64,000 bases of DNA from Bacteroidales bacterium. GTDB taxonomy: Bacteria > Bacteroidota > Bacteroidia > Bacteroidales > Marinilabiliaceae. The stretch spans positions 94,499 through 158,498 of the forward strand of contig QKJP01000029.1 in the NCBI GenBank assembly GCA_003249255.1, given 5' to 3'. This document shows, piece by piece, positions 6,267 through 57,752 of the stretch. Each line of letters begins with the position of its first letter. The first letter of the stretch is position 1. Under the pieces are notes generated by a model. It saw only the letters and a program-made list of their open reading frames with translations. It was not told where the DNA came from and searched no databases. The position numbers and the translations under genes are program-made.

Positions 6267-6320
6267 GTTTGTTGGCTTTATTGAATTTAAAATCTTTTAA
6301 AAGTGAATGTTAGGTGAGGT

Positions 6321-6896
6321 TTAAATGTAAAGCTTGTGGTAGTGTATAAAGTTCTGAACCTCAGGAGTCGTAAAGTAGGGTATTTCTTTGTTATTGGCGA
6401 TCCAGTTTCTTAATTGAGTGGATGAGATATCAATCATTGGAGCTTCAGTAATTTTGCAATTTGTTGGATATTCATTGGTGTCAATTTTAAATCCCGGTCT
6501 GGGATAGATCAGAATGCTGAAGTTTTCCAGAATAAAGGCTGCATCTTTCCATTTGTGAATATTTTGAAGATTGTCAGCACCCATGATGATCGAGAACTCG
6601 TGGTTGGGGTATTTTGTTTGCAGAGCTTTTAAGGTGTTGCTGGTGTACGACGGGGCGGGTAGTTCCAGCTCAATATTTTCTGTATGTATGGCGGGATGAT
6701 GCTTCGTCGCAATGGTTGCCATCTGAAGCCGAAGAGAAGCGTCCAATAAATCATCTTTTTTCTTGAAGGGATTTTGAGGACTAACAACAAAACGAACTTC
6801 ATCCAGATTTTCAAATTCAATCATGTAATTGGCCACAGCTAAGTGACCAATGTGAATGGGATTGAAAGATCCGAAAAACAGACCAGTCTTAATCAT
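6321..6896 (-). CDS. nadD: nicotinate-nucleotide adenylyltransferase
   Basis: GLFFGSFNPIHIGHL nucleotidyltransferase (H/T)xGH motif; 191 aa. Confidence 0.8.
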   Translation of the reverse strand: MIKTGLFFGSFNPIHIGHLAVANYMIEFENLDEVRFVVSPQNPFKKKDDLLDASLRLQMATIATKHHPAIHTENIELELPAPSYTSNTLKALQTKYPNHEFSIIMGADNLQNIHKWKDAAFILENFSILIYPRPGFKIDTNEYPTNCKITEAPMIDISSTQLRNWIANNKEIPYFTTPEVQNFIHYHKLYI

Positions 6897-8430: not shown

Positions 8431-8632
8431 GCTTTAGTGTTTAGGGCTTTCGCTTTTAGCGAAATGATTATTCCCAGTCCACTAAAATCACTTTTTCTCA
8501 ATCACAAAAAAAAAACACGGAAAAATTGAAAATCAGCAAAGCTAAATTAGTCCTCCAATTTTACTTTTCGGGTGTTTTCGTAGTTAAAAATACATTGTTT
8601 TGTTTAAAAGCAATTTCCCTGCTTTAGTGTTA
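8431..8632. mobile_element. Family-2 MITE-like element, copy A (element ~8443..8620 plus flanking direct repeat GCTTTAGTGTT)
   Basis: ~180 bp, ~85% identical to 28473..28668. Imperfect terminal inverted repeats AGGG(A/C)TTTCGC...GCAATTTCCCT, flanked by 11-bp direct repeats. Confidence 0.55.
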
Positions 8633-14835: not shown

Positions 14836-17316
14836 TTGTTTAATGACGTAGATATGCCTTTGAGAGCTTATATAAAGTATCTTAAAATATTACTGCTACT
14901 TATCTTTAGTTTTCTTTTTTGTATTTCTTGCCAAAAGAAACAAGAAGAAATTAAGATCGGTTTTTCTGCACCAAATATAGATGCCGGGTGGAGCGAATTA
15001 TTGTATCAGGAAATGGAGCAAGAACTACAGCTTTACATTGATGATAATATTCGCTTAATAACGAAATGTTCCGGAAATGATGTTCAAAAACAACGGCAGG
15101 ATATACTCGATCTGTTTGATCAAGATGAAGTTGATGTTTTGATCGTATATTCATTCGATAATGAGGTAGTTGTGCCTGTTTTAGAGGAAGTTTATGATAA
15201 AGGATTGCCAATAATTACCTTAGACCGAAAAATTGATACAGACAAATATACTTGCCGGATTGGGTTTTCAAATTATGATTTTGGGCAACAGGTTGCCCGC
15301 TATGCCAATAACCAATTAAAAGATACCATACAGGTCATCGAAATCTTAGGAGAAGCCGGTATGTTGGCTACGGTTTATCGGTCACAAGGTTTTAGAGATG
15401 TTGTAAATTCAAATCCCAGATTTAAAATTATTGACCAGTTTTATGGTGGTTGGGTAGATGGTGTTGTAAAGTATAAATTAGACAGTATTCTATCGTCAGG
15501 TAAGCATCCCGATTTAATTTTTGCCCATAATGATATAATGGCTTACGCTGCAAAGCAGGTTTGTGAGCGTTATTCAATTAATCCTTTTATCATTGGAATT
15601 GATGGTTTGGCCTATCCTGGAGGAGGATTGGAGATGGTGTATAATTCAGGTATTGATGCAACTTTTTACAATCGTCCCGGAGGTGATTTGTGCATTAATA
15701 CTGCTGTACGTATCATAAAGGGTGAAGAGGTGGAGAAAGATGTGTTGATGAAAACCTTTCCAATTGATAAAAATAATGTAGAAGGATTGCGCTATGGCTT
15801 TAAGTTTATTAAACAGCAACGTGAGAAGTTTTCAAATTTATACGGTAAGGTAAGTTCTTTGCAGGAGCGGATATTTTATCAGCGCTTAACCACCTATCTG
15901 ATTTTAGTTTTAGCATTAATTGTTGCTGTGTTTGCCGGGATTGCTTTTTATTTTTTAAAACAAAAGCAACGCTATATAAAAGTTATTCACGATAAGAATG
16001 AGGATATCGAAAATAAAATTGAAGAAGAAAAAGCTTTGTCTGAAGATCTGGCGAGAGCCAATAAGGAGCTAAGAAGGAAACAAGATGAGGTGGGGAGACA
16101 AAATAAAGCATTGATAAAATACCACGAGAACCTTGAGGTAACCGTTAGAGAACGAACGAGAGAATTATCAGTTGCTTTAGAAAAAGCCAATGAGTCGGAT
16201 AAGTTAAAAGAATCTTTTATCCAAAATCTATCCCATGAATTAAGAACTCCAATTAATGCCATTATGGGATTTAGTCCATTTTTGTTTAATTCTGAATTTA
16301 CCGAAGAAGAGCGTCGGGGATTTCAAAAACTGATTGAAAATGCAAGTGAAGAACTATTGCACATAATGGAGAATATATTAGAAATATCCTTGATTTCTTC
16401 CGATCAATATAAAATCACGACTTCAAATTTTAATGTGTTACAGTTCATAAATTCCTTTTACAAGCACGTGATGCAAAAGTATGGAACGCTTTTAAACAAT
16501 GGAAAAAAGAACATCGAAGTCATATTAAATCCATGTCCCAATGCTTATGTTGAAACCGATAAAGCAAAGATTCAACAGGTGCTTGAACAGTTACTTGATA
16601 ATGCTATTAAGTTTACAGAAAAAGGCAAGGTTGAAGTGGGAGTAGAAAGAATGGCAGGCAAAGATACTTTGTTGTTTTATGTGATGGATACGGGGATTGG
16701 AATAGATAGGGTTTATTTTGATATAATATTTGAGCGGTTTCGAAAGATTGAGGATGATCAACGCATTTTACATAGAGGTAATGGCTTAGGTTTAGCCATA
16801 TGTAAAAATGTGATTAAAAAATTAGGAGGAGATATTTGGTTGGAATCAGAACGTGGTCTTGGATCTATATTTTATTTTACAATAAATGTAGGTCAAATAA
16901 GCTTAGATCAAGATGTTGATTTAAATGGGAATGGAAAATCGAGTTTGTCAGGTTGTCAAGTATTAGTAGCTGAAGATGAAGCTTATAATTATTTATTCCT
17001 TAAGGCTGTATTGTCAAAACAAGGCGTGCATACAATTTGGGCGAAGGATGGGCGAGAAGCTGTACAAAAATGTTTAGAGCATAAAAATTTTGATTTGGTT
17101 TTGATGGATATTGAAATGCCTCATTTAGATGGAGAAAGCGCTTTTAAAAAAATTAGAATGATGAAGCCTACCTTGCCTGTCATTGCCTTAACTGCTTTTA
17201 ATCATGAGAAAGATAAAGCGTATTTTCTAAATCTGGGGTTTAATGATTATTTATCAAAGCCTGTAAAATCAGCAACATTGATCGATTCAATTATTTCCAC
17301 CTTAGTTACGCAATAA
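14836..17316 (+). CDS. hybrid sensor histidine kinase/response regulator with N-terminal periplasmic sugar-binding (PBP1-like) domain
   Basis: Signal/TM, PBP-like region and a second TM (~aa 350), then a coiled coil. HisKA H-box SHELRTPINAIMGF, HATPase_c (GIGIDRV...GNGLGLAI), and a C-terminal REC domain (VLVAEDE...LMDIEMPHLDG). Confidence 0.8.
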   Translation: MFNDVDMPLRAYIKYLKILLLLIFSFLFCISCQKKQEEIKIGFSAPNIDAGWSELLYQEMEQELQLYIDDNIRLITKCSGNDVQKQRQDILDLFDQDEVDVLIVYSFDNEVVVPVLEEVYDKGLPIITLDRKIDTDKYTCRIGFSNYDFGQQVARYANNQLKDTIQVIEILGEAGMLATVYRSQGFRDVVNSNPRFKIIDQFYGGWVDGVVKYKLDSILSSGKHPDLIFAHNDIMAYAAKQVCERYSINPFIIGIDGLAYPGGGLEMVYNSGIDATFYNRPGGDLCINTAVRIIKGEEVEKDVLMKTFPIDKNNVEGLRYGFKFIKQQREKFSNLYGKVSSLQERIFYQRLTTYLILVLALIVAVFAGIAFYFLKQKQRYIKVIHDKNEDIENKIEEEKALSEDLARANKELRRKQDEVGRQNKALIKYHENLEVTVRERTRELSVALEKANESDKLKESFIQNLSHELRTPINAIMGFSPFLFNSEFTEEERRGFQKLIENASEELLHIMENILEISLISSDQYKITTSNFNVLQFINSFYKHVMQKYGTLLNNGKKNIEVILNPCPNAYVETDKAKIQQVLEQLLDNAIKFTEKGKVEVGVERMAGKDTLLFYVMDTGIGIDRVYFDIIFERFRKIEDDQRILHRGNGLGLAICKNVIKKLGGDIWLESERGLGSIFYFTINVGQISLDQDVDLNGNGKSSLSGCQVLVAEDEAYNYLFLKAVLSKQGVHTIWAKDGREAVQKCLEHKNFDLVLMDIEMPHLDGESAFKKIRMMKPTLPVIALTAFNHEKDKAYFLNLGFNDYLSKPVKSATLIDSIISTLVTQ

Positions 17317-24992: not shown

Positions 24993-25149
24993 GATAGGAT
25001 TACGGGGTAGTATAAAAAAAGGTGAGCAAGCTGCGAAAGTGCTTTTAATCAAATAAGTAAAAACAAGATGGTATTTATTTTGTTTTTTCATGTGTTGCTT
25101 TTTGATCCTTTTCTACAAATATTGAATGCTGATCGAATAAAAAAATATA

Positions 25150-25423
25150 GAGGTAAGTAGTTAAATACTTATCAATCGTAAGCTAACGTTAGCATCAAAG
25201 ATGCGGTGGTATAAAGCATAGTCTGAAGGGCTATGGATATTGTGGCATGAGATTGTTAGCACAAATATAGGTGCGTAGTCGTGTGATTAGACTACGCACC
25301 TATAGGGCTTAAATAAAACACCTAATTAGTATTCTGGCACTTACTGGCTAGGCTTTTGGATATCGCCCATTTTAGGGCTTTTTTAGATTTATGCAGAAAG
25401 GTATGTACTTATCTACTGACCTC
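25150..25423 (+). mobile_element. Family-1 ~275-bp interspersed repeat (MITE-like), copy 1
   Basis: ~85% identical to 57425..57701. Terminal inverted repeats GAGGTAAGTAG...CTACTGACCTC. Internal hairpins GTGCGTAGTC-N12-GACTACGCAC and CATAGCC-TGAAG-GGCTATG. Confidence 0.55.
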
Positions 25424-25556
25424 AACGCATATTTACCAATTGCACGAACTTCCTATATCTCAGATTTTTAAAGGAGTTATATCTAGTCTTTGCACTGCAA
25501 GTTATTTACGAACAAAAGCGTATTTTACACTCAAAGTATCTTAGTAACTTTGCAAC

Positions 25557-26495
25557 ATGGAATTAAAAATAGCACTCATATTATCTGCTGTATTGCAACT
25601 TATAGCCTTTGTGATAGCTATTAGTCTTATTCCTAAAACCCGATTCAATGTTGCTTGGATTAGTATTTCAATTGGTTTCTTGTTGATGGGTTTACGACGG
25701 GTTTTTGAAGTAGTTTATTATGTAAAAGCAGCAACGGATGATAGCATTTCAGTGCTTAATAGTTGGATAGCCATAGTTATTTCAATGGCCATGTTGGTTT
25801 CGTCAATTTATATTCGCAAGATTTTTGAAGTTCTTAGCCGAATCCATCAATTGCGTAAGGAAAATGAAGCAAAGCTTTTATCGGCAATTATCTCAACAGA
25901 AGAAAAAGAACGGAAATATTTTGCCAAAGAAATTCACGATGGCTTAGGACCCGTCTTATCATCGGCAAAAATGACTCTTACCGCCATTAAGCGCGATAGT
26001 CTTTCTGATTATGATTCCGAAAAGCTTGATCAAGTTGAAAGCCTTGTAGATAATGCTATTGTTGGGATGAGAGAGATTTCTAATCGACTTACACCGCATG
26101 TGCTAGAGCGTTATGGGCTGAAAAAGGCAATTGAAGCTTTTATTCGTAATACCATAAGTAGTGAAAGTATTGAGGTGAATTTAAGTACCAATATTGATAA
26201 AAATCGATTTGAATATAATGTTGAAGTTATCTTATACCGTATTTGCTGCGAGTTGGTGAATAATTCGCTTAAATATGCACAGGCTAACAGGATAAATATC
26301 ATGCTAACAGAATTTAACAACAAGCTTGATTTTAAATATGACGATAACGGCATTGGTTTTTGTCTGGAGAAAGTTGAAAACAAAGGAATGGGATTAACTA
26401 ATATCAAATCGCGTGTTACATCATTAAATGGATCTGTGATCCTTGAAAGTTCACCATTAAAAGGGTTTTATGCTCACATTAATTTGCCAAAATGA
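25557..26495 (+). CDS. sensor histidine kinase (NarL/LuxR-type partner, HisKA_3)
   Basis: Three N-terminal TM helices. H-box EKERKYFAKEIHDGLGP and a HATPase_c region. An 4-nt overlap with the downstream response regulator suggests translational coupling. Confidence 0.75.
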   Translation: MELKIALILSAVLQLIAFVIAISLIPKTRFNVAWISISIGFLLMGLRRVFEVVYYVKAATDDSISVLNSWIAIVISMAMLVSSIYIRKIFEVLSRIHQLRKENEAKLLSAIISTEEKERKYFAKEIHDGLGPVLSSAKMTLTAIKRDSLSDYDSEKLDQVESLVDNAIVGMREISNRLTPHVLERYGLKKAIEAFIRNTISSESIEVNLSTNIDKNRFEYNVEVILYRICCELVNNSLKYAQANRINIMLTEFNNKLDFKYDDNGIGFCLEKVENKGMGLTNIKSRVTSLNGSVILESSPLKGFYAHINLPK

Positions 26496-27133
26496 AAAAA
26501 CTCAAAGTACATATTGTCGATGACCATACCCTATTTAGAGAGGGCTTAATGTTTCTCTTAAAAAATAGCGAATATGTCTCTGAAATTAAAGGTGCTGAAA
26601 ATGGCAAAGAATTCCTTAGTCAGTTAACTGATTTTAAGTCGGATGTGGTTTTGATGGATATTGAAATGCCTGAATTAAATGGTGTTGAAGCTACCAAAGA
26701 AGCGTTAAAGCGTTGTCCTGAACTGAAAGTGGTGGCCCTTTCCATGTATTCTGACGAGAGCTTTTATTCAGAAATGATAGAAGCCGGGGCTAAAGGTTTT
26801 TTATTAAAGAATTCACAGTTTGAAGATGTTGAGAATGCCATTCTTGAAGCTCATAATGGTAGAAATTTTTTTTCACCCGAAATACTCACATCCATCATTG
26901 CTGGATTGAACCGAAAACCTCAGCCGATAAAAAGCGGTGAACTGACCAAAAGAGAGGTTGAAGTTTTACTAAACATTTGTCAGGGGTTATCAAATCAGGA
27001 AATTGCAGACGCACTAATTCTTAGCAAACGTACCGTAGATAAACATCGTGAAAATATTCTGTTAAAGACTGGCTCTAAAAATACAGCCGAAATGGTGGTA
27101 TATGCCATTAAGAAAGGGTATTTTGAAGTGTAG
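26492..27133 (+). CDS. response regulator, NarL/LuxR family
   Basis: REC domain (VLMDIEMPELNG) plus a C-terminal LuxR HTH (LSNQEIADALILSKRTVDKHRENILLK). Confidence 0.85.
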   Translation: MKKLKVHIVDDHTLFREGLMFLLKNSEYVSEIKGAENGKEFLSQLTDFKSDVVLMDIEMPELNGVEATKEALKRCPELKVVALSMYSDESFYSEMIEAGAKGFLLKNSQFEDVENAILEAHNGRNFFSPEILTSIIAGLNRKPQPIKSGELTKREVEVLLNICQGLSNQEIADALILSKRTVDKHRENILLKTGSKNTAEMVVYAIKKGYFEV

Positions 27134-28461: not shown

Positions 28462-28678
28462 TAACTACCCCTAGGGATTTCGCTTTTAGCGAAATGTTTA
28501 TTCCCTGACCACTAAAATCATTTTTTATCAACCACGAAAGTCACTAAAAACCACGAAAAAATTGAAAATCAACGAAGCTAAATTAGTACCCTGATTTTAG
28601 TTTTCGTGTGTTTTTGTGTTTTTCGTAGTTAAAAATAAATTGTTTTGTTTAAAAGCAATTTCCCTGTGTAACTACCCC
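28462..28678. mobile_element. Family-2 MITE-like element, copy B (element ~28473..28668, TSD TAACTACCCC)
   Basis: Aligns end-to-end with 8443..8620. Flanked by a 10-bp direct repeat TAACTACCCC. Confidence 0.55.
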
Positions 28679-30306: not shown

Positions 30307-30939
30307 ATGCAAGAAGTAATTAGTGCCTCTTTTTCGACCATCAACCTGATTCCAACAGTTCTTTTATTACTCGTTTTAGTTTATTGGTTAACTGTTATTG
30401 TTGGTGTTTTTAACATCGATACATTTGATTTTGAAACATCTGCCGATGGGGATGTAGACATTGAATTTGGCGAATCTTTTATTTGGCTGAATTCAGCACT
30501 GTCTTTTTTTAATCTAGGCCGGGTTCCTATCATGATTATCCTTAGCTTTTTTGCGTTATCGCTTTGGTTTTGTTCCATTCTGGTTAATCATTATTTAGGC
30601 ATAACCTCCATGGGTTTTGCATTGGTGTTATTAATTCCTGAGATAATTATTAGTGCTTTTGTATCTAAGTTTTTCTCCACTCCTTTTGTAAAGCTTTTTA
30701 AGAAAGATTTAAGTGTGATTGAGAGTAATGAGCATCTAACCGGTAAGATGTGCACCGTAACCTTAGAAGCCGATGCTAAAAACTTTGGTCAAGCTGAGAT
30801 TAAAATTGATGGTACGTCTTTAATCATTAATGTATTAGCTACTGAAGAGGGCATGGTTTTACCCAAAGGGGAAAGTTGCTTGGTGATCGATTACCTTCCT
30901 GAAAGAAAGTTATATTTAATAGAATCCTATAAAAATTAG
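30307..30939 (+). CDS. NfeD/YqiJ-like (DUF1449) inner-membrane protein
   Basis: 210 aa with four TM helices and a C-terminal beta-rich OB-like segment. It lies 8 bp upstream of a flotillin gene, the same arrangement as E. coli yqiJ-yqiK. Confidence 0.55.
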   Translation: MQEVISASFSTINLIPTVLLLLVLVYWLTVIVGVFNIDTFDFETSADGDVDIEFGESFIWLNSALSFFNLGRVPIMIILSFFALSLWFCSILVNHYLGITSMGFALVLLIPEIIISAFVSKFFSTPFVKLFKKDLSVIESNEHLTGKMCTVTLEADAKNFGQAEIKIDGTSLIINVLATEEGMVLPKGESCLVIDYLPERKLYLIESYKN

Positions 30940-30946
30940 TTACCCT

Positions 30947-33055
30947 ATGTTAGAAAATGTAATTCAAACCTCCATTATTATTGGAGTAATTTTATTCGTT
31001 GGAATCATCATCTTGGTGGTTAAAACTTATCGCAAAACCACCCAAGGACAAGCTCTGGTTCGTACCGGACAAGGTGGATCTAAAGTAACCTTCGACGGTT
31101 TTTTTGTTATTCCTGTGCTTCATCGCATGGAAGTGATGGATATTACCTTAAAAACTGTAACCATTGCGCGTGAAGGTAAAGAGGGATTGATTTGTAAAGA
31201 CAACCTTCGTGCAGACATCCGGGTGAATTTCTTTGTGCGTGTGAATAAAACATCTGAAGATGTAATTCAGGTAGCGCAGGCGATTGGTTGTAACCGTGCA
31301 TCTGATATTACAGCTTTGGTTGATTTATTTGATGCGAAGTTCTCAGAAGCTTTAAAAACAGTTGGTAAGCAATTTGAATTTGTGGAATTATATAATTCAC
31401 GTGAGAAATTTAAATTAGAAATTCTTCGTACAATTGGTACCGACTTAAATGGTTATGTGCTGGATGACTGTGCCATTGATTTCTTAGAGCAAACTCCGGT
31501 TGAGCAACTTTCTCCGGATAATATTTTAGATGTGGAAGGGATCAAGAAGATTACTAAAATCACGTCTGAACAACAAATCTTATCTAATCAGATTAGACGA
31601 GATAAAGAGAAAACGATTACTAAGCAGGATGTTGAAGCCAAAGAGACGGTGCTTCAATTAGAAAAACAGTTGGCTGAGACTCAGGAAAAGCAAAAACGTG
31701 AAATCGCCAATGTGAGAGCACGTGAGCAAGCAGAAATTGCCAAAGTGGGTCAGGAGCAAGCTTTAATTAGTGAGAATGCACGCATTGCTACCGAAGAAGA
31801 AATTATGGTAGCTGAAGAAAATAAAGAGCGCCAGATTATTGTGGCACGTAAAAATAAAGAACGTACTGAAGCTTTAGAGAACGAATCAGTTTTAAAAGAT
31901 CAACAGTTAGAAGCTAACGAACGCGAGAAGATTGTTTCTTTGGCTCGAATGGAAAAAGATAAGCTTTTAGAAGCTGAGCAAAAGAAAATGCAAGAGGTCG
32001 TTCGTGAGCGCATTGAGGTTGAAAAATCAGTTGTTGCCGAGCAGGAGAAAATCAAGGATACTCAGGCTCATGCAGAGGCAGAGCGGAATAAGTTAGTAGC
32101 GATCAAAGAAGCCGAAAAAGAAGCTGAGACGAACTTAGTAACTGAAATTAAGAGTGCCGAAGCAGCTCGTAAAGCAGCTGAGTTTAAAACGGAACAACGC
32201 ATTATGGAAGCCAAGGCTGCTCAGGAAGCTGCTGATAAAGAAGCAACAGCCATGAAGATTTTAGCTGAGGCAAAAGCTGCAGAAGCGGCTGCTGTTGGTA
32301 TTTCAGAAGCACAGGTGATTGAAGCGAAAGCTGCCGCCAAAGAAAAAGAAGGAATTGCTCAGGCAAATATCATTTTATCAACCTCTAAAGCAGAAGCCGA
32401 AGCAATTCAGAAAAAAGGATTGGCTGAAGCTACCGTTAAGCAGGCCTTAGCCAAAGCATCTGAAGAAGAAGGTATGGCTGAAAACCGTGTGGCGAGCGAG
32501 AAATTCTCAATCGAAGCAAAAGGTATTGAAGAAAAAGCTGCTGCCATGAAAAAATTAGATGGTGTCGGTAAGGAACATGAAGAATTCAAACTGCGCCTTA
32601 ACAAAGACAAAGAAATTGAATTGGCTAAAATCAACATCCAAAAAGAAATTGCAGGTGCTCAGGCTAAAGTGATCAGCGAAGCGCTTAGAGCTGCAAATAT
32701 CGATATTGTTGGTGGTGAAACCATGTTCTTTAATCAAATTATGGGTGCCATCACTAATGGAAAAGCTGTAGATCGCATGGTAGGCAGTAGCAATGTGTTA
32801 GCCGATGTAAAAGACACCTTTTTCTCCACTGATGATGGAAAGAGTTTCAAGGTGAACTTACAACAGTTTATCGATCAGTTTGGAATGAGTTCTGAAGATT
32901 TAAAGAACTTAAGCTTAACAAACCTTCTGTACAAGATGGGGAACCAAACGAATAAAGAAACCGATAAAAACTCCATCCTTGGCTTATTAGATACCGTTAA
33001 GAGCTTAGGCTTATCTAATAAAACAGCTCAAGAAGTTGGCATTGAGCCATTTTAG
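30947..33055 (+). CDS. flotillin-like SPFH/Band-7 protein (YqiK/FloT-like) with extended Ala/Glu/Lys-rich coiled coil
   Basis: N-terminal TM then an SPFH domain (GQALVRTGQGGSKVTF...). The 702-aa length includes a long EA/KA-repeat coiled-coil region. Confidence 0.8.
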   Translation: MLENVIQTSIIIGVILFVGIIILVVKTYRKTTQGQALVRTGQGGSKVTFDGFFVIPVLHRMEVMDITLKTVTIAREGKEGLICKDNLRADIRVNFFVRVNKTSEDVIQVAQAIGCNRASDITALVDLFDAKFSEALKTVGKQFEFVELYNSREKFKLEILRTIGTDLNGYVLDDCAIDFLEQTPVEQLSPDNILDVEGIKKITKITSEQQILSNQIRRDKEKTITKQDVEAKETVLQLEKQLAETQEKQKREIANVRAREQAEIAKVGQEQALISENARIATEEEIMVAEENKERQIIVARKNKERTEALENESVLKDQQLEANEREKIVSLARMEKDKLLEAEQKKMQEVVRERIEVEKSVVAEQEKIKDTQAHAEAERNKLVAIKEAEKEAETNLVTEIKSAEAARKAAEFKTEQRIMEAKAAQEAADKEATAMKILAEAKAAEAAAVGISEAQVIEAKAAAKEKEGIAQANIILSTSKAEAEAIQKKGLAEATVKQALAKASEEEGMAENRVASEKFSIEAKGIEEKAAAMKKLDGVGKEHEEFKLRLNKDKEIELAKINIQKEIAGAQAKVISEALRAANIDIVGGETMFFNQIMGAITNGKAVDRMVGSSNVLADVKDTFFSTDDGKSFKVNLQQFIDQFGMSSEDLKNLSLTNLLYKMGNQTNKETDKNSILGLLDTVKSLGLSNKTAQEVGIEPF

Positions 33056-33329
33056 AAAAAGATAAATAGATTGTTAGATGATAGATGTTAGACTTATTTT
33101 TATAGTCTAATATCTATCCGTCTATAATTTTTCAAATTTCCCCAACGCTCACTCTTCGATTCCCTATAGGGATCAACGCGCGATCGCTTCCCCTTTAGGG
33201 ATTAGGGGTAAATGTGTTGGCATATTTAATTTGTAATATTTTTCGTATGGTCAATTCTATCAATCTATTATCTAATGTCTATTAGTCTATCATCTAATAA
33301 TCTATCCAAAATTTGTCCATTCGTAACTT

Positions 33330-36300
33330 ATGACTGAAGAAACAAAACCCACCGAGACACAATTAGAACAAGGCACTTACGAAATAATCCAGAACCGTTT
33401 AGTTCAGAATGGTAAAGATTTACAAAATCGGCTGAAAACCTTAAACGATGAGCGAAAAAAAGTTTTTGGTTCCATTGAGACGGCTTTGATTGGTAATGAG
33501 CGAATATCTACTGAAAATAATTGTATTGCTGTAGATATGATCACCATAGGCCAGTGTTTTATATTTGGATACAATGTGGTGATTGGCCTTAAAACGGAGG
33601 TTGAAATTTCGGATGTTTTTAGTGTTTATAAGTATAGTTGCAAAGATCATAATTTTCAATCAGAAAGTCTTAATCTGATTTATTCCAAAGAATTTGAAAA
33701 CGATTTCAAAAACCTTTATAAATACTACAAAGAAGCCCAGTTTACAAAATTTGCAAAAATTGGCACTTCACTTTTCATGGTGTTTAAAACCGGAAAAGGC
33801 AAGTACGATATTAAAACCTTAAAATTTGCCATTAATGGCGATACCATTCATTATCTGGATAACCGTAGTGACCATGAATTTGTGTTTCCAAACCAGCACG
33901 AATTTCAGTGGAAGAAAACAACCCGCGATCAGCATGTCAAAGGTGAACATCCGCATATCTCCATCGAAGACCGCGTGTTTGTTGAAACAGTAGGCGGTGA
34001 TTTAACCATCAAAATTGAAAATAACACCGATTCCGGAGAAGGAATTTACGAAGAAGACGTTGATCACAAAACTCAAACTTTAGATGATGGTGAATACTAC
34101 TATGCCATCATTGATAACCTGATCGTATTAAAGATCAAACCCTACCAGGAAGAGAAATTCCGTTACATTGTTTATAACGATAAGATAAAACAAGCCGTTC
34201 GCATTGATTCCCTTGAAGGTTCGTGCGTGTTGCTTCCGGATAACCATGGTTTAATATTTGCCAATGGTTATTATTTACAAACCGGTGAGACGAAGATTTT
34301 TGATAATCAACTCTCCGATATGCTCTATCAGCAACGCATTGCTTCGCCTAACGGGGAAGATTTTTTATATGTTTTCTTCAATCAATCCAGCGGAGAATAC
34401 ATATTACTTTCTTATAACCTGATTGCACAAGAGGTTGAAACGCCTATCATCTGCAATGGTTACTCCTTGTTTGAAAATGGGGAGATGTGCTATTTTAAAT
34501 CTGATGGTGAGCCTAAAAAGCACCATACCCTTCAGATTTGGAAAACGCCTTATTTGGATAGTAATTATCAATCTACAGATAACGCTTATCAGGATTCATT
34601 CCTGTATAAAATAGGTAATAAAGACATCGTTCGTGGGATGTCGGAATGTAGTGAGGTTTTAAAGCTCATCAACAAAGAGGATAGCTACGAAAACCTTTAC
34701 ATCGACATCCTTAAAAAGTCCAACGACATCATTGATGCCTATTATTGGGTGGGCAAGGAAGAGGCTGCCAATCTGTTAGTGCCTTTAGCAGAAATTAAAG
34801 AAACGGCCGGCAATGCCATCGAGGAGTTCGAGAAGGTCGTAACCATGAAAAAGAATACCCGCGATGAAGTGAACCGGGTAAAGCTACTGATCGAAACGCT
34901 TGTGCAAAAGATCAAAGATTCTTCTTTCTCTAACATCAACGAATACGTGAATGTGTTGGCCGATTTAAGAGGCTTACGTGGAGAAACCATTTCATTAAAA
35001 GAACTAAGGTATGTAGACCTTGATTACGTTCAGGAAGAGGAAGGAAAATTAGAGACTTTCAACTCAGAAATTTCTAACAACTGTGTAAAGTTTCTTTTAA
35101 AAGAAGAAGCCCTTCAGCCTTATTACGACAAGGTTGAAGAATTAAAAACAAAAATTACCGAAGTATCAAAAGTAGTTGATGCGAACAAAATAGAAAACGA
35201 GCTCACTCAAACATCTTCAGAGTTGGAGATGCTGATCGAAATCATCAGTAATCTTAAAATTGAAGATGCCACAGAGACCACTCGTATCATCGATGCCATA
35301 TCGAGCATTTATTCTAGCTTTAACCAGGTAAACGCAGCACTGAAAAGGAAGCGAAAAGAGTTGTTAAGCCTGGAAGGAACCGCAGAGTTTAATGCTCAAA
35401 TTAAACTGATTAGCCAAGGATTAACCAACTATTTGGAGCTAGCCGATGCACCGGAAAAGTGTGTGGAGTTTCAAACCAAGTTAATGGTTCAGATTGAAGA
35501 ATTGGAAGGTAAATTCTCTGATTTTGATGAGTTTATCGAAAAGATTAACACCAAGCGTGAAGAGATTTACAATTCTTTTGAGTCGAAGAAAATAAGTTTA
35601 GTAGAAGCTCGTAATAAGCGGGCGAATAGCTTAATGCAATCCTCAGAGCGCATCCTCAAAGCCATTCGCAACCGTGTAACGAAGTTTAAAGAGGTGAGCG
35701 AAATTAACGGTTACTATGCTTCCGATTTGATTATTGAAAAGTTGCGTAACCTTGTTAATGAATTGGTTGAGTTGGAAGATCCGGTAAAAGCTGATGCCAT
35801 CCAGAGCCAGTTAAAGACCATTAAAGAAGAAGCCATTCGCCAGTTAAAAGACAAGAATGAGCTTTTTGTGGATGGCCAGAATATCATCAAGTTTGGTACG
35901 CATCATTTCTCGGTAAACACTCAGGCTTGTGAGCTAACCATGGTGTTTAAAGATGGCGATATGTATTTTCACCTGACCGGAACCAGCTTCTATGAGAAAG
36001 TTGTTAACGATGATTTTTATAGCTATAAAGACCTTTGGGATCAGAGCATTCCATCTGAAAACAAAGAAGTATACCGCGCAGAATATTTAGCTTATCAAAT
36101 TTTAGAAGCCAACATTGGAAACCCAACCCGCGACTTCTCAAAGATGACGGATGAAGAGTTACTGGGCTACATTCGCGAATTTATGAGTCAGCGTTATAAC
36201 GAAGGCTATGTAAAAGGCGTTCACGATCAGGATGCGCTTATCATTGTAAAAGAATTACTGGCCTTGGTACAAACTGCCGGACTGTTAAAATATTCCACCA

Positions 36301-38219
36301 AAGCGCGTGCTTGCGCGAATTTGTATTGGAGCTGTTTTGCCTCAGATAGCATAAAAAACAGTTACCGCAAACAAATGAAAGGCATCGGTGCCTTGCTTGA
36401 GGTTTTTCCTGATGCACAGGAGTTTCAATACATCATTGAAGGCATTGAAAAAGAGTTAGCCGAGTTTATCTTGGAAACAAAACTATTTGATCCGCTTTAC
36501 ATTCCCGAAGCTGCCGATTATTTATTTCATGAGGTCGTAAGTGGCGATGATTTTGTGGTTGATTATCAGGCATCCACATTGTATGAAGCCTTTCATCGAT
36601 TTTTAAAAGATAAAAAGGCTCAAGATAAATTTAGCCACTCCAAAGCTGAGTTGGTAGATAGTCCTTTGGCTCAATACCAATTAATTACCAAATGGTTGAA
36701 GGCCTTTATGATGACATCCGGCGTTACAAACAAAGATCATTACATCAATGAAGTTTCGGTGTTATTAATGCTGGATAATTTTGATAATAAGAATGTCATC
36801 AAGGTAAGTCTGAGTAAGGAATTGGATGGTTTGCAAGGAACTCATTCCACATTGGAAGGAGGAAAGTATCAGTTTGATTACAATAATTTCATATTTAAGT
36901 TAAAGAACTACCAGGAAAAGGTAGCTCAGCGTTTTGATGTGTTGAGTGGATTAAAGAAAAACTTGATTCAGCAATTTGAAGAAGATTTAAGGTTGAATGA
37001 GTTTAAGCCTCGTGTCATGTCTTCCTTTGTTAGAAATAAGCTCATCGATAAAGTTTACCTGCCATTGGTAGGAGATAACCTGGCAAAACAAATGGGGACA
37101 GCCGGAGAAGGTAAACGTACCGATTTAATGGGGATGTTACTCCTAATTTCACCTCCGGGATATGGTAAAACGACCTTGATGGAATACATAGCCAGTCGTT
37201 TAGGTATCATCTTTATGAAGATTAACGGGCCGGCCATTGGACATGAAGTAACCTCTCTGGACCCTGCCGAAGCAGGTAATGCCGGGGCTCGTGAAGAGTT
37301 GAAAAAGCTAAACCTATCCTTTGAGATGGGCGATAATGTGATGATCTACCTGGATGATATTCAGCACTGTAATCCCGAATTTTTGCAGAAGTTTATTTCC
37401 CTTTGTGATGCTCAGCGTAAGATCGAAGGTGTGTATAAAGGCAAGAGTAAGACTTATGATTTTCGTGGTCGAAAAGTATGCGTAGTAATGGCCGGTAACC
37501 CCTACACCGAAAGTGGAGATAAATTCCAGATACCGGATATGTTAGCGAACCGTGCGGATATTTATAACCTGGGTGATATTTTAGGAGATACAGCAGATAT
37601 CTTTAACATGAGTTACATCGAGAATACACTAACATCTAATAAAGTATTGAACCAATTGGCTGCCAAAAGTCACAACGATATTTATCCCTTGTTGCGCCTA
37701 GCTGAAACTGGTGATAAGGATGGCTTAGAGTTTGAAGCAAGCCATACACCAACTCAGATAAACGATTATGTAAATGTGCTGAAAAAACTAATCGTCATTC
37801 GGGATGTGATTTCGAAGGTTAACCAGCACTATATTTCATCAGCAGCACAAGCCGAAGAATACAGAACTGAACCACCATTTAAGCTTCAGGGATCGTACCG
37901 AAACATGAATAAAATTACCGAAAAGGTAATGCCTATCATGAATCATGAAGAGTTAGAGACCTTAATACTTTCGCACTACGAAGGAGAGTCTCAAACACTA
38001 ACATCAGGGGCAGAGGCCAACATGTTGAAGTTTAAAGAGATCTTTGGTAAGATGAATGAAAAAGATGTGGCCAGATGGGAAGAAATCAAGCAAACCTTCC
38101 GCAAAAATCAAAAATTAAAAGGCGGTGGTGCCAATAATCAGGCTGCACAAGTAGTTGCCGGAATGGATAACATTACCGAGAGTATTTTGGAGCTGAAAAA
38201 GGCTTTGATGAAGAATTAA
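33330..38219 (+). CDS. giant (1629 aa) protein with C-terminal AAA+ ATPase domain (MoxR/AAA_5-like); function unknown
   Basis: Single uninterrupted 4.9-kb ORF. Walker A LLLISPPGYGKTTLMEY, Walker B VMIYLDDIQH, sensor VCVVMAGNPYT, and a downstream R-finger-like IPDMLANRADIYNLG near aa 1240-1400. The N-terminal ~1200 aa are beta-rich then long alpha-helical, with no domain I can name. Confidence 0.7.
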   Translation: MTEETKPTETQLEQGTYEIIQNRLVQNGKDLQNRLKTLNDERKKVFGSIETALIGNERISTENNCIAVDMITIGQCFIFGYNVVIGLKTEVEISDVFSVYKYSCKDHNFQSESLNLIYSKEFENDFKNLYKYYKEAQFTKFAKIGTSLFMVFKTGKGKYDIKTLKFAINGDTIHYLDNRSDHEFVFPNQHEFQWKKTTRDQHVKGEHPHISIEDRVFVETVGGDLTIKIENNTDSGEGIYEEDVDHKTQTLDDGEYYYAIIDNLIVLKIKPYQEEKFRYIVYNDKIKQAVRIDSLEGSCVLLPDNHGLIFANGYYLQTGETKIFDNQLSDMLYQQRIASPNGEDFLYVFFNQSSGEYILLSYNLIAQEVETPIICNGYSLFENGEMCYFKSDGEPKKHHTLQIWKTPYLDSNYQSTDNAYQDSFLYKIGNKDIVRGMSECSEVLKLINKEDSYENLYIDILKKSNDIIDAYYWVGKEEAANLLVPLAEIKETAGNAIEEFEKVVTMKKNTRDEVNRVKLLIETLVQKIKDSSFSNINEYVNVLADLRGLRGETISLKELRYVDLDYVQEEEGKLETFNSEISNNCVKFLLKEEALQPYYDKVEELKTKITEVSKVVDANKIENELTQTSSELEMLIEIISNLKIEDATETTRIIDAISSIYSSFNQVNAALKRKRKELLSLEGTAEFNAQIKLISQGLTNYLELADAPEKCVEFQTKLMVQIEELEGKFSDFDEFIEKINTKREEIYNSFESKKISLVEARNKRANSLMQSSERILKAIRNRVTKFKEVSEINGYYASDLIIEKLRNLVNELVELEDPVKADAIQSQLKTIKEEAIRQLKDKNELFVDGQNIIKFGTHHFSVNTQACELTMVFKDGDMYFHLTGTSFYEKVVNDDFYSYKDLWDQSIPSENKEVYRAEYLAYQILEANIGNPTRDFSKMTDEELLGYIREFMSQRYNEGYVKGVHDQDALIIVKELLALVQTAGLLKYSTKARACANLYWSCFASDSIKNSYRKQMKGIGALLEVFPDAQEFQYIIEGIEKELAEFILETKLFDPLYIPEAADYLFHEVVSGDDFVVDYQASTLYEAFHRFLKDKKAQDKFSHSKAELVDSPLAQYQLITKWLKAFMMTSGVTNKDHYINEVSVLLMLDNFDNKNVIKVSLSKELDGLQGTHSTLEGGKYQFDYNNFIFKLKNYQEKVAQRFDVLSGLKKNLIQQFEEDLRLNEFKPRVMSSFVRNKLIDKVYLPLVGDNLAKQMGTAGEGKRTDLMGMLLLISPPGYGKTTLMEYIASRLGIIFMKINGPAIGHEVTSLDPAEAGNAGAREELKKLNLSFEMGDNVMIYLDDIQHCNPEFLQKFISLCDAQRKIEGVYKGKSKTYDFRGRKVCVVMAGNPYTESGDKFQIPDMLANRADIYNLGDILGDTADIFNMSYIENTLTSNKVLNQLAAKSHNDIYPLLRLAETGDKDGLEFEASHTPTQINDYVNVLKKLIVIRDVISKVNQHYISSAAQAEEYRTEPPFKLQGSYRNMNKITEKVMPIMNHEELETLILSHYEGESQTLTSGAEANMLKFKEIFGKMNEKDVARWEEIKQTFRKNQKLKGGGANNQAAQVVAGMDNITESILELKKALMKN

Positions 38220-38226
38220 AAAAAAA

Positions 38227-38345
38227 GGCAGAAGGCAGTAGGCAGAAGACAGAAGTGAAAATGTGCAAATTAGGAAATGTGCAAATTAAATATGTGCTAA
38301 TTATTTGTTCGGATAAAAACGGACTTTCGGACTAAGTACCTCGGA
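38227..38345. repeat. ~115-bp direct repeat, arm 1 (partner at 38521..38640)
   Basis: GGCAGAAG...AATGTGCAAATTAGGAAATGTG...TGTGCTAATTATTTGTTCGGATA(A/G)AAACGGACTTTCGGACTAAGTAC(C/T)TCGGACTA is shared at ~85% identity. Confidence 0.6.
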
Positions 38346-38347
38346 CT

Positions 38348-38369
38348 AAAAAAAAAGCTCCAACGGAGC
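38348..38369 (-). terminator. orphan rho-independent terminator on the minus strand
   Basis: The minus strand reads GCTCCGTTGGAGC followed by a T9 run. No annotated minus-strand gene lies upstream of it. Confidence 0.5.
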
Positions 38370-38520
38370 GTTGTCTTCTAGCCTAGTGCGTAGCGCTAGG
38401 AGGTAATGTGAATGAAATCATGTAAATCAATGTCGCAACCGCAAAGGAGGATTGTGAGCTAAAGTTGAATGCGACATCTTGCACAATGGAAAATTAGTTA
38501 ACAGAAGCATTAATCAAAAA

Positions 38521-38640
38521 GGCAGAAGTGTGCAAATTAGGAAATGTGAGAAAGTAAAAATTAAATAATGTGCTGATGTGCTAATTATTTGTTCGGATAG
38601 AAACGGACTTTCGGACTAAGTACTTCGGACTATTAAAAAA
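38521..38640. repeat. ~115-bp direct repeat, arm 2
   Basis: See arm 1. It ends 10 bp before the TerB-like gene start. Confidence 0.6.
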
Positions 38641-38649
38641 CAATATAAA

Positions 38650-39057
38650 ATGAGCATAATAAATAGCAATTCAAGTCAGGCAAAAGGTGAATTAGCAGCT
38701 TTTGTAAGAATGGCAAAGGCCGATGGTATCATCAAAAAATCCGAGGATATGTTGCTGCGTCTTTTGGCCAAAAAATTAAATGTAGCGGAATCTGATTTAG
38801 ATGCGATCTGTGATAATCCGGATAACTTTCCATTAGAGCCGCCAATCAATACAGAAGATCGAAATGTATTGTTTTACAAGTTGATTCAAATGATGAAAGT
38901 GGATTTATCTGTAGAGGTGGATGAAATTGAATTTTGTAAAAACATAGGACTTGATTTAGGCATTAGTCCCGCTAAGATTGATGACATTATTAAAATATCA
39001 ATTCTTAAAAATAAAGAAGTGGTTGATTACGATACCATTCGAAAGTTGTTGGTGTAA
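38650..39057 (+). CDS. TerB-like (tellurite-resistance TerB / DjlA-N-like) domain protein
   Basis: 135 aa with two helix-pair units matching the TerB pattern (AKADGIIKKSEDMLLRLLAKKLNV and VDLSVEVDEIEFCKNIGLDLGIS). Confidence 0.5.
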   Translation: MSIINSNSSQAKGELAAFVRMAKADGIIKKSEDMLLRLLAKKLNVAESDLDAICDNPDNFPLEPPINTEDRNVLFYKLIQMMKVDLSVEVDEIEFCKNIGLDLGISPAKIDDIIKISILKNKEVVDYDTIRKLLV

Positions 39058-39084
39058 TAGTCAACCAATTGAAATAACTAAAAT

Positions 39085-39118
39085 GCAGTTAAGATGTTAT
39101 GCTTAACTGCTTTTTTAT
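39085..39118 (+). terminator. rho-independent terminator
   Basis: GCAGTTAAG-loop-CTTAACTGC followed by TTTTTT after the TerB-like gene. Confidence 0.65.
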
Positions 39119-39147
39119 TTGTTTGAAATGATTAATAAAACCTGATC

Positions 39148-39942
39148 TTGAATACAAAAGTGGAAAAAAATAAATCCGGATTTACCATTAACTCCTGCAT
39201 CTCAAGTGGTATTGTCCTCCTTATGCTATTAGTGGGCGTCTTTCAAGTGTATGAAATGCATAAGCGATCGAAGCGTTTAGAAACTAAAAATCAAGTGCGA
39301 AAAGAGCTGTCCAAAATAAGTGCTAAAGAATCAGAGTTGAGAGACCATCTTCAGGCAATTGCACAAAAGTTGCAGCCGGTTCACTTATATACCAATAGTA
39401 CATCCGATTTTGAGTTGTATCTAAGTCCAAATATTTATTACAACAACGATTTAACTGGTGATGATGCAATATTGGAAGACTATGTCATTAAAATTGATGC
39501 TTTCCTAAAGCAAAATGGATCTGCGGGGTATACCGTGAAATATGTTCGTGATGATGTAGAAATCTATGTGATGAATTTGGATAATAACTCTAAGCTTCAT
39601 CCTGATTCTAATTATTATGCGCTTAAAATGTGGAAAGAATTTGATGAAGATAGCACTGGATATAAAAAACTGCCTGAAATATCTGTACTTTATTTACTCT
39701 TGAGCGAATCGGAATTAAAACAAGGAAAGGCTAACAGCTTATCTGATTTTTATTGGAAGAAAAAGATGAAGGAAATCAATTCAGAGAACAGATTTTGCTT
39801 CTCACCTTATAACCGAAGAGTAAGTCAGGAAAAGTTTGATTCAATTGTAGACTACTTTAAAGCGATGTATTTAGATGGGATGGATCTAAACAGGATAAAA
39901 AAATATAGTAAAGAAGTCTCTGTTAGTAGTTCTTATTTTTAA
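39148..39942 (+). CDS. hypothetical membrane-anchored protein
   Basis: N-terminal TM (GIVLLMLLVGVFQVY) then a coiled coil; 264 aa. Confidence 0.45.
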   Translation: MNTKVEKNKSGFTINSCISSGIVLLMLLVGVFQVYEMHKRSKRLETKNQVRKELSKISAKESELRDHLQAIAQKLQPVHLYTNSTSDFELYLSPNIYYNNDLTGDDAILEDYVIKIDAFLKQNGSAGYTVKYVRDDVEIYVMNLDNNSKLHPDSNYYALKMWKEFDEDSTGYKKLPEISVLYLLLSESELKQGKANSLSDFYWKKKMKEINSENRFCFSPYNRRVSQEKFDSIVDYFKAMYLDGMDLNRIKKYSKEVSVSSSYF

Positions 39943-39969: not shown

Positions 39970-40788
39970 ATGACAAAATACAATCTAATCTTTCAACTTC
40001 TTTTTATTCCCTTCTTAATTTATTCTCAGAACGATAATGAATTCATCTGGGAAAATGCCATTGACCTTTATTTACAAGGAGATTATACAAATAGTATCAA
40101 TGAAATCAATCAAATTGATTCGTTATCCTTAACCTGCGAAATGATTGAGTTAAAACTAGAATGCTATCATCATCTAAGGAAATATGATGTGTGTATCGAT
40201 TACATTGAAAAGGCCAAGGAAATATGTTCTCTTAATTCGGTCACATTTACCAATCTGGGCGATAGTTATTTTAAGCAAAACCAAGTGGACAGTGCTATTG
40301 TTAACTTTTATATAGCTAATAAAATTGATCCTGAAAACCCAATTGTAAATTGGAATTTAGGACTCTGTAATTACCTGTTGTCCGATCTTAATAAAGCAAA
40401 GTTTTATTTAAAAGAATCGATTCGTAATCAAAATCCGGATTTAGATCCCTATGATTTGTTAATGCAGATTTATAATGAAACAAATTGTTCCGATAGTACT
40501 TTCTTATTGTTGAAGTCGCTCGAAAACCATGAGGATGTGGCTAGGGTAACATTAATGAAGGCATACGCTTATGGTAATCAACATAAGTATCGGAAGAGCC
40601 TGAAGATAATTGATAAAGTATTAGCAATGAATACAACTGATTATGCAACCAGATATAATTGTTATTTAAACAAATACTTAGCTTACACTCACATGAAGAA
40701 AGAAAGTAAGGCCTGTGAAATATATAAAATGATGCTTAGCTTATACCTAACGGCTGAAATACCAAAGTATTTTGAATGTGAAGAATGA
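39970..40788 (+). CDS. TPR-repeat protein (secreted)
   Basis: Signal peptide plus TPR-like 34-aa repeats (NLGDSYFKQNQVDSAIVNFYIANKIDPEN). Confidence 0.5.
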   Translation: MTKYNLIFQLLFIPFLIYSQNDNEFIWENAIDLYLQGDYTNSINEINQIDSLSLTCEMIELKLECYHHLRKYDVCIDYIEKAKEICSLNSVTFTNLGDSYFKQNQVDSAIVNFYIANKIDPENPIVNWNLGLCNYLLSDLNKAKFYLKESIRNQNPDLDPYDLLMQIYNETNCSDSTFLLLKSLENHEDVARVTLMKAYAYGNQHKYRKSLKIIDKVLAMNTTDYATRYNCYLNKYLAYTHMKKESKACEIYKMMLSLYLTAEIPKYFECEE

Positions 40789-40800
40789 TTTACAATTTTT

Positions 40801-41010
40801 GAGGTCAGTAAATAAGTACATTCCTGTATAAATCTATAAAAGCCCCTAAGTGGGCGATATCCCAAAGCCTTGCCTGTAAGGGCTAGGATATTAATCAGGT
40901 ATTATATTTAAGCGCCAATATATTCCTAGCCCTTCAGGCTAGGCTTAATGACACAGCATCTTTGATGCTAACGTATGCTTACTAATGATAAGTATTTAAA
41001 TACTTACCTC
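40801..41010 (-). mobile_element. Family-1 repeat, copy 2 (short variant lacking the central hairpin)
   Basis: Reverse-complement orientation with both TIRs present. The central ~70 bp are deleted relative to copies 1 and 4. Flanks are ACAATTTTT and TACATTTTT. Confidence 0.55.
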
Positions 41011-41091
41011 TATACATTTTTTTTATAACCCATCTATGTTAAGGATTAGTGTTATATTTACACTTTTAAAAAATGAGTATACATTTTCACC

Positions 41092-50232: not shown

Positions 50233-50360
50233 GTTTATTGCAATTTTTGATTGTGGTGGCGAAGATAGTTTTTTTTAATAAATTCGACTTCGTAAGTAGG
50301 TATAAAAGAAAAGCCTGCTAATTTCAAAAAGTTAGCAGGCTTTTATAATAGAACTGAATA

Positions 50361-50635
50361 TGTCTAAAAGTACATACAATTCTGGTTTAATCTAAAAAAA
50401 AGCCCCAAAGGGGGCGATATCCTAAAGCCTTGCCTGTCAGGGCAAGGATGTTAATTATGTATCTTATATAAGGGCCAAAGGTGCGTAGTCTTAATCACAA
50501 GACTACGCACCTATATTTGTGCTACAATATCCATTTGCCATTATATTCATAGCCCTTCGGACTATGCTTTAGGACACCGCATCTTTGATGCTATGATATG
50601 CTTTTTGTTGATAAGTATATAACAACTGACTTCTG
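50361..50635 (-). mobile_element. Family-1 repeat, copy 3 (reverse orientation, diverged termini)
   Basis: Contains the GTGCGTAGTC...GACTACGCAC hairpin and the GGGCGATATCC core. Its ends are degraded. Confidence 0.5.
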
Positions 50636-50636
50636 A

Positions 50637-57413: not shown

Positions 57414-57424
57414 TTACATTTTTT

Positions 57425-57701
57425 GAGGTAAGTAGTTAAATACTTATCAATAGTAAGCTTACGTTAGTATCAAAGATGCGGTGTCATTAAGCATAGCCTG
57501 AAGGGCTATGAATATCATGGCATGATATTGTTAGTGCCAAAAGTGTGTAGTCGTGTAATATAAGACTACGCACCTATGTTTGGCATTTAAATAAAATACC
57601 TGATTAATATCCTAGCCTTTACTGGCTAGGCTTTGGGATATCGCCCACTTTGGGGCTTTTTTAGATTTATGTAGAGATGTATGTACTTATCTACTGACCT
57701 C
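57425..57701 (+). mobile_element. Family-1 repeat, copy 4
   Basis: Full-length copy with TIRs GAGGTAAGTAG...CTACTGACCTC, flanked by ACATTTTTT and TACATTTTT. Confidence 0.55.
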
Positions 57702-57721
57702 AATACATTTTTAAAAAATTG

Positions 57722-57752
57722 AAGCGCAGTTTTATTAAGCTGCGCTTTTTTA
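57722..57752 (+). terminator. rho-independent terminator
   Basis: AAGCGCAG-loop-CTGCGCTTTTTT. Confidence 0.65.

Follow-up and report, generated by a model that had tools for sequence, protein, structure and literature searches.

A probable lineage-restricted MITE family with a strand-specific conserved fold in marine Bacteroidales

Repeat copies and their genomic setting

The window, that is the whole stretch of 64,000 nucleotides of Bacteroidales DNA analysed here, carries four intergenic copies of a repeat of ~275 bp in both orientations, all of them found at the positions given by a first-pass annotation. The copies, their terminal inverted repeats (TIRs), the target-site duplications (TSDs) and the adjoining gene features are the following:

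25148..25425, plus strand: copy 1, full length; TIRs 25150-25168 and 25405-25423; no TSD
25270-25300, plus strand: central hairpin of copy 1
25330-25384, plus strand: 3' two-hairpin module and T-run of copy 1
39970-40788: TPR gene, ending in TGA, beside the left TSD of copy 2
40791..40798: left TSD of copy 2 in plus-strand letters, TACAATTT, 2 nt past the TGA stop of the TPR gene
40799..41012, minus strand: copy 2, internal-deletion derivative; TIRs 40992-41010 and 40801-40819; 3' module 40836-40891
41013..41020: right TSD of copy 2 in plus-strand letters, TACATTTT, matching the left one at 7/8 positions
50304-50344: native terminator of the T9SS-tail gene, with copy 3 upstream of it
50361..50636, minus strand: copy 3, which has diverged furthest (78-81% identical to the rest); 5' TIR 50615-50633 with 3 mismatches
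50480-50511, minus strand: central hairpin of copy 3
50394-50451, minus strand: 3' module of copy 3
50362-50373, minus strand: last alignable 3'-end bases of copy 3
50637-50639: TAA stop of the T9SS-tail protein gene, abutted by copy 3
56028-57413: MatE gene, ending in TAG, upstream of copy 4
57415..57422: left TSD of copy 4, TACATTTT, 1 nt past the TAG stop of the MatE gene
57423..57703, plus strand: copy 4, full length; TIRs 57425-57443 and 57683-57701
57467-57479, plus strand: hairpin H2 of copy 4
57492-57510, plus strand: hairpin HA of copy 4
57512-57528, plus strand: hairpin H4 of copy 4
57533-57587, plus strand: hairpins H5 and HB of copy 4
57611-57630, plus strand: hairpin HC of copy 4
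57643-57662, plus strand: hairpin HT and T-run of copy 4
57704..57711: right TSD of copy 4, TACATTTT, matching the left one at 8/8 positions, or 9/9 in a shifted register
57721..57748, plus strand: intrinsic terminator native to the MatE gene, with a 12-bp stem of -17 kcal/mol; lies outside the element

The copies are 78-91% identical in pairwise blastn comparisons (E from 1e-21 to 1e-90), which maintains the repeat relation proposed earlier and slightly widens its range of 80-88%; the mean column identity in a MAFFT alignment of the copies is 80%. Two conserved cores, GGATATCGCCC and CATCAAAGATGC, occur in the window exactly four times and four times, respectively, versus 0.22 and 0.5 occurrences expected. 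The element is 214-281 bp long and the ORFs inside the copies span 21-62 aa; none of these is conserved, so that the repeat is non-coding and a protein-coding repeat is ruled out. The clean deletion of ~70 bp described in copy 2 is present (~68 alignment columns, corresponding to 65-68 nt of the other copies), but it eliminates more than the single hairpin first supposed: the central hairpin and both adjoining helices, three helices in all, are gone. Its junction lies at 40912-40925 and, as read from the alignment, falls between short TATTG-like repeats. It is proposed that copy 2, with its internal deletion, and copy 3, with a decayed 3' TIR, are immobilised relics.

A fifth copy, 78-86% identical to the others, was found in the Bacteroidales MAG SZUA-582 (locus L037, 1436-1722) downstream of an unrelated alkD-like gene, whose best protein homologue, in a collection without that MAG, is 57% identical. 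The scan of one-genome-per-species contigs with GGCTTTNGGATATCGCCC that revealed it gave 86 matches; among the loci returned only L037 aligns, the others being single chance matches in unrelated phyla. A search of metagenomes with a 19-base pattern yielded 2 chance matches and no true copy, and the viral contigs, plasmids and phages scanned contained no true copy either. In relatives at 74-80% protein identity, no copy was present in ~80 kb from five loci, and the three relatives sampled had neither a copy nor synteny at the copy 4 site. The window encodes T9SS sorting domains and a carboxyltransferase whose closest homologue is 80% identical (73-75% in Anaerophaga and Plebeiibacterium), which points to a poorly sampled Marinilabiliales-like lineage; the family is best taken to be restricted to a single marine Bacteroidota lineage of which few members have been sampled.

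Logan contigs from two sequencing runs of the same species encode proteins 100% identical to those of the window and carry the element at all four loci. Contig ends fall inside all four copies (25147, 40901, 50570, 57454, 57646, and 57655), and the four copies have no exact 31-mer in common, the longest shared word being 27 nt. From the breaks in every copy and the lack of a common 31-mer we infer further, closer copies elsewhere in the genome; the family thus explains the fragmentation of short-read assemblies of this organism at these loci.

In agreement with the gene context first described, copy 1 is found upstream of a HisKA_3 kinase gene, at a distance of 134 nt, and copy 4 lies 11 nt downstream of MatE. 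Copies 2, 3, and 4 start 0-10 nt past stop codons; in particular, copies 3 and 4 separate the stop codon from a strong native terminator (-17 kcal/mol), and copy 4 has pushed that of the MatE gene ~290 nt downstream. Judging from this position, copies 3 and 4 would form part of the transcript of the upstream gene and be read in sense. Copy 2 runs antisense to the genes beside it. The element has the orientation of the upstream gene in four of the five copies, a proportion that is not significant. A cis-regulatory leader was rejected, the downstream gene not being consistent.

Other repeats and gene groups were observed in the window. A second intergenic family, at 8442-8621 and 28472-28666, consists of ~180-195 nt in three adjoining blocks that are 85-98% identical; it has no Rfam match, and a same-species Logan contig ends in its second copy at 28501. 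The 42-nt GTAYTTGAAGTTTTCTTCATAAGTTAGGGTTAAGGTTAGGTT is present at 52386-52427 and 54288-54329 (98% identical), with a Logan contig ending in the first copy (52418), and also in the MAG that holds the fifth copy (L037, 1870-1912); on the minus strand it shows a conserved leader followed by ATGAAGAAAAC. A 41-nt repeat at 17092-17132 and 26642-26682 (90% identical) is part of two genes with receiver domains, one for a hybrid kinase (14836-17316) and the other for a LuxR-type response regulator (26492-27133), and was rejected as mobile, being paralogous coding similarity. The cluster at 30307-39942, which may be a defence or stress island, encodes a 1629-aa DUF3686/DUF7902/AAA ATPase ('ATPase involved in DNA repair'), a TerB-like protein, and two large ORFs (210 and 702 aa) without a Pfam match.

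Termini, target sites, and fold

The TIRs first described as GAGGT(A/C)AGTA...TACT(G/T)ACCTC are present and extend further, to ~19 nt (GAGGTMAGTAGWTAARTAC). This sequence is found with 0-3 mismatches at seven of the eight copy ends and nowhere else in the window, where 0.08 occurrences are expected; the end without a match is the 3' end of copy 3, a degenerate TIR.

The (T)ACA(A/T)TTTTT flanks noted at copies 2 and 4 are real, and the shared target or TSD suspected there was recovered, since both copies are flanked by 8-9-bp direct repeats of the target TACAWTTT. When the element boundaries are set at TWGAGG...CCTCAA, identical for copies 2 and 4, the flanks of copy 4 (TACATTTT/TACATTTT) match at 8/8 positions and those of copy 2 (AAAATGTA/AAATTGTA) at 7/8, or 9/10 in a shifted register; at random window positions a flank match of at least 7/8 in any of 25 registers is reached in 1.3% of cases per copy. 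The flanks of copy 1 and of the MAG copy match at 3/8 and 1/8, respectively, which means no TSD, and copy 3 was left out of the scoring; TSDs are therefore present in only two of the four copies having both ends intact. Ectopic recombination between copies could, as a speculation, account for the TSD-less copy 1 and MAG copy, the flanks of which are also rich in T/A tracts. The absence of TSDs had been named beforehand as an argument against mobility, whereas they occur at two copies.

The duplications at copies 2 and 4 are the same 8-mer, inverted relative to the element, and the repeat therefore belongs to the target. The same inversion between copy 2 and copy 4 argues against a site-specific integrating element of the att type, which was rejected. 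The right flanks of copies 1 and 4 are alike over ~19 nt, which leaves some uncertainty about where exactly the 3' boundary lies.

The element is a quasi-palindrome that aligns with its own reverse complement, and both of its strands fold far better than shuffled sequences (z = -5.3 and -6.0). MFE and RNAalifold predictions give one long hairpin; this was rejected as the main structure, since the compensatory changes in HA and HC fit local hairpins and not an HA-HC pairing. In fact, HA is CAUAGCC/GGCUAUG in most copies and CCUAGCC/GGCUAGG in copy 2 (A-U to C-G), HC is CCUAGCC/GGCUAGG in copy 4 and CCUUGCC/GGCAAGG in copy 3 (A-U to U-A), and H5 changes from C-G to U-A in copy 4. The hairpins named in the first-pass annotation all exist, with the correction that the loop of the central one is 9-11 nt and not 12.

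The folding and covariation analysis proposed there as a check was run on a hand-written structure that combines eight local helices with the TIR stem and was scored over five sequences. In this structure 92% of the pair cells are paired, versus 32-37% when the partners are slid, and four pairs are changed on both sides, a number reached in 15 of 500 shuffles; the covariation score is 0.097 versus 0.070 in shuffles, five of 500 reaching that value. Substitutions per column are similar in stems (0.31) and loops (0.37). With only five sequences the covariation is modest and the conservation of pairing supportive, not conclusive, and template switching within a quasi-palindrome could mimic compensation without selection.

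The two strands can be told apart by their mismatches. A transition in a stem leaves a G·U pair on one strand and an A·C mismatch on the other, and a neutral palindrome is expected to accumulate them in equal numbers. In the element, stem mismatches are G·U rather than A·C in a ratio of 15:2 by cells (p=0.002) and 13:2 by columns (p=0.007), and the ratio is 15:4 on a structure derived with G·U forbidden. No matching mutation bias is seen in unpaired columns, where changes of the type C>T or A>G number 9 versus 13 in reverse. The GGGGCTTTTTT-bearing strand has a more stable fold than its complement in each of the five copies, by 1.6-19 kcal/mol, and the excess of G·U over A·C indicates that the fold is constrained on this strand. 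The constrained strand would most likely act at the RNA level, within 3' UTRs; the bias could alternatively arise from a single-stranded DNA intermediate, which fits poorly with TIRs and TSDs. Counting G·U versus A·C is cheap evidence, requiring only sequences, of a fold constraint on one strand.

Readings of the family

The repeats are best read as a non-autonomous MITE family of ~275 bp, with a probability of roughly 0.6. Of the two identities offered at first, a MITE or a small-RNA family, the former gains from the TIRs, the TSDs at two copies, the deletion derivative, the decayed copy, the restriction to one lineage, the copy at an unrelated locus, and the assembly breaks, and the latter, as a gene family, loses from the lack of a conserved promoter. 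Under the MITE reading, the TIRs and flanking repeats suggest a transposase that would be encoded elsewhere in the genome and would recognise the ~19-nt TIRs, inserting the element in either orientation into an A/T-rich TACAWTTT-like target, of which 8-9 bp would be duplicated. Many insertions would survive between a stop codon and the gene terminator, and the element would be carried into the 3' UTR of the upstream mRNA, as the position of copies 3 and 4 suggests. The interior would fold into eight local hairpins closed by the TIR stem and would end in the two-hairpin module followed by a U-run; the element would most likely be a structured RNA appendage, either a 3'-end stabiliser or a weak extra terminator of the kind reported for REP, ERIC, and Correia elements, and not a free-standing gene. 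We infer mobilisation in trans by a DDE transposase, co-transcription, and an RNA role.

A Pfam search of the 58 window ORFs gave no transposase, Y1/RAYT, TnpB, or integrase, and an autonomous IS with the TIRs of the family was found neither in the window nor in the other loci fetched (99 in number) nor in viral contigs; the TIR sequence itself is likewise absent from the other loci and the viral contigs. One relative with 77% carboxyltransferase identity (locus L097) has a DDE_Tnp_1 transposase of the IS4/IS5 type at 5471-6376, which together with a HipBA module immediately precedes the carboxylase operon; the TIR sequence of the family does not occur in the L097 locus.

The alternative that survives best, although unlikely, is that of dispersed independent small-RNA genes, each with its own promoter and ending at the GCCC...GGGC hairpin and U-run, the termini of the repeat being the closing stem of the RNA. 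The strand-specific conservation of pairing agrees with this, as does the resemblance of the 3' module to the Rfam sRNA motif Acido-Lenti-1; the conserved sequence, however, continues for ~40 nt past the U-run and includes the 3' TIR, a stretch that would be superfluous in an sRNA gene ending at the U-run. All five copies keep a GC stem with 4-8 U after it, but the stem has only 4-5 bp (-7.4 to -9.9 kcal/mol) and falls below the criteria of a terminator scan that did call the native terminator 60 nt downstream; the portable-terminator role first suggested is possible but weak, the more so as the native terminators downstream of copies 3 and 4 are much stronger and copy 2 has the antisense orientation. 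A TAnnTTTG box occurs ~10 nt before an AU-rich leader in copy 4 and the MAG copy, but the motif is not conserved in or next to the five copies, being present in the sense strand of at most two of the five and in the antisense strand of three; no TTTG (-33-type) element lies within 30 nt upstream of these boxes. No Rfam family reaches its gathering score in the window, so that a known RNA family is rejected, and the 8-9-bp direct repeats, the two orientations, and the insertion after stop codons are features of transposons.

Even less probable is an element of the REP/REPIN or IS200/IS605-PATE type, mobilised in single-stranded form by an HUH (Y1) transposase with hairpins of one strand as its recognition sites. 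The tolerance of G·T and avoidance of A·C on one strand only fits such an intermediate too, and the whole element is quasi-palindromic; to our knowledge, however, the REP/REPIN and IS200/IS605-PATE families are without TIRs and make no TSDs, and here 19-nt TIRs and 8-9-bp flanking duplications are present. TCAA forms the end of four of the five copies and TATA precedes three of them, but the tetranucleotide at the 5' flank varies (TATA, TATA, ATCA, TTTT, and TATA). The GTAG/CTAC of the central stem is inside the stem and not an end tag, 275 bp greatly exceeds a REP/REPIN, and no RAYT, TnpA, or TnpB gene is in the window.

A non-mobile regulatory or terminator structure, anciently duplicated and fixed at its loci, is very improbable: the element is indeed present at all four loci in the two other same-species samples, with no empty site among the contigs, but their proteins, 100% identical to those of the window, denote the same strain or species, so that this presence says little, and against it stand the TIRs and TSDs, the functionally unrelated neighbour genes, the two orientations, the absence of the family from relatives at 74-80% protein identity, and the location of the MAG copy at a different gene.

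Accepted as a MITE, the element adds one more lineage-specific family to the catalogue; this family is new and lineage-restricted, its strand-specific fold is unusually well preserved, and its 3' module is reminiscent of an orphan RNA motif.

Relation to known RNA motifs and repeat elements

The 3' module scores 31.5 bits in copy 3 and 27.5 bits in copy 4 against Acido-Lenti-1 (RF01687), whose gathering score is 37; in a permissive search of the whole window against all Rfam families this corresponds to E=0.003, and no match at E<=1 is listed for copies 1 and 2 or for the MAG copy. The likeness is one of architecture and of conserved unpaired bases: the CCUAGCC-loop-GGCUAGG hairpin of the element, the CU, the AU..CG linker, the short GC hairpin, and the final CU reproduce the 46-nt consensus, that is two hairpins separated by a ~12-nt linker, with GGCU after the first hairpin, AU..CG before the second, and CU at the 3' side. 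When written explicitly as CTAGGCT-N8-14-CG-N10-16-CTTTTT, the pattern matches copies 1 and 4 and one unrelated locus, with 0 matches expected. This locus, 38348-38400 on the minus strand, is intergenic and scores 23.6 bits against Acido-Lenti-1.

The surroundings of the latter deserve a description of their own. Between the gene of the 1629-aa DUF3686 ATPase and the TerB-like gene, the intergenic region 38210-38640 contains a direct duplication of ~140 nt (38210-38356 and 38504-38640, 88-94% identical) that flanks a unique segment of ~150 nt, and the minus strand of this segment holds the free-standing Acido-Lenti-1-like two-hairpin module, followed by nine T. This site may represent an sRNA gene or a further carrier of the module.

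Acido-Lenti-1 comprises 89 instances in Acidobacteria, Lentisphaerae, and environmental sequences, with many copies per genome, often in tandem (PMC2864571); it is sometimes near group II introns and no function was assigned to it (Weinberg et al. 2010, PMC2864571). In Tannerella forsythia, a species of the Bacteroidales, it has been annotated downstream of protease genes (2026 preprint). In the supplementary alignment of Weinberg 2010, the motif is arranged head-to-tail with regular spacing in Lentisphaera araneosa (NZ_ABCK01000001.1, 416513-416780, and other arrays); the spacings are 74, 69, 110-115, and 192-200 nt, and each unit of ~192 nt holds a second partial motif. Given the regularity of these arrays, the motif looks like part of a larger repeated unit and not like a lone sRNA. 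A profile of the repeat family was run against six Acido-Lenti-1 loci taken from PMC2864571 (five from Lentisphaera and one from Koribacter) and was significant at two Lentisphaera loci, the best alignment covering ~80 nt, of which ~40 nt lie 5' of the Rfam motif, with E=4e-6 in a targeted search of 5 kb.

The element and Acido-Lenti-1 are both multi-copy within a genome and differ as follows: the U-run after the second hairpin of the element is absent in the Lentisphaera and Koribacter examples inspected, and the element embeds the motif in a 275-bp unit bounded by TIRs, which are not described for Acido-Lenti-1. The score falls short of the family threshold, and the resemblance may be taken as a lead. 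A bolder proposal, tentative and rather doubtful at present, is that the 3' module is a true relative of Acido-Lenti-1 and that the motif is a portable RNA 3'-end module, not a conventional sRNA, spread across Bacteroidota, Lentisphaerota, and Acidobacteriota by mobile repeats. If this were true, the module would be a protein-binding or stabiliser/terminator unit and the MITE its first visible vehicle with TIRs and TSDs; the element would then offer a testable idea and a tractable place for the study of a motif orphaned since 2010.

Among palindromic repeats, REP/BIME/REPIN sequences are likewise extragenic, hairpin-forming, and located downstream of genes (PMC3733652), and a role in the stabilisation of mRNA 3' ends or in transcription termination is attributed to them (PMC3733652). 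A REP, however, has 20-40 nt, a GTAG or CGTC end tag, and no TSD, whereas the element has 275 bp, TIRs, and TSDs and is devoid of an end tag; the RAYT gene, the REP partner, was not found in the window. PATEs derived from IS200/IS605 are characterized by subterminal hairpins and by insertion 3' of a fixed target of 4-5 nt, a description that the element does not match. With intrinsic terminators the element shares a GC stem followed by 4-8 U, but its stem is of only 4-5 bp.

Correia/CREE of Neisseria, the enterobacterial ERIC/IRU, and the pneumococcal RUP are small non-coding intergenic MITEs with TIRs and target duplications. Found in both orientations and restricted to particular lineages, they comprise deletion derivatives as well and fold end to end into a long hairpin; their usual location is the 3' UTR, from which they can influence the stability of the mRNA or its termination. 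BrickBuilt of Porphyromonas gingivalis is the same kind of small, TIR-bounded MITE in Bacteroidota, with the TIR GAGACCTTTGCA in place of the GAGGTMAGTAG... of the element (PMC4596501). None of the four has sequence similarity to the element, which is also larger (275 bp), contains eight conserved internal hairpins, and shows a strand bias in its stem wobbles; moreover, the TSD of Correia and RUP is TA, in contrast to the 8-9 bp found here. In behaviour, Correia, ERIC, RUP, and the MITEs of P. gingivalis are nonetheless its closest counterparts, that is, co-transcribed MITEs that fold as RNA.
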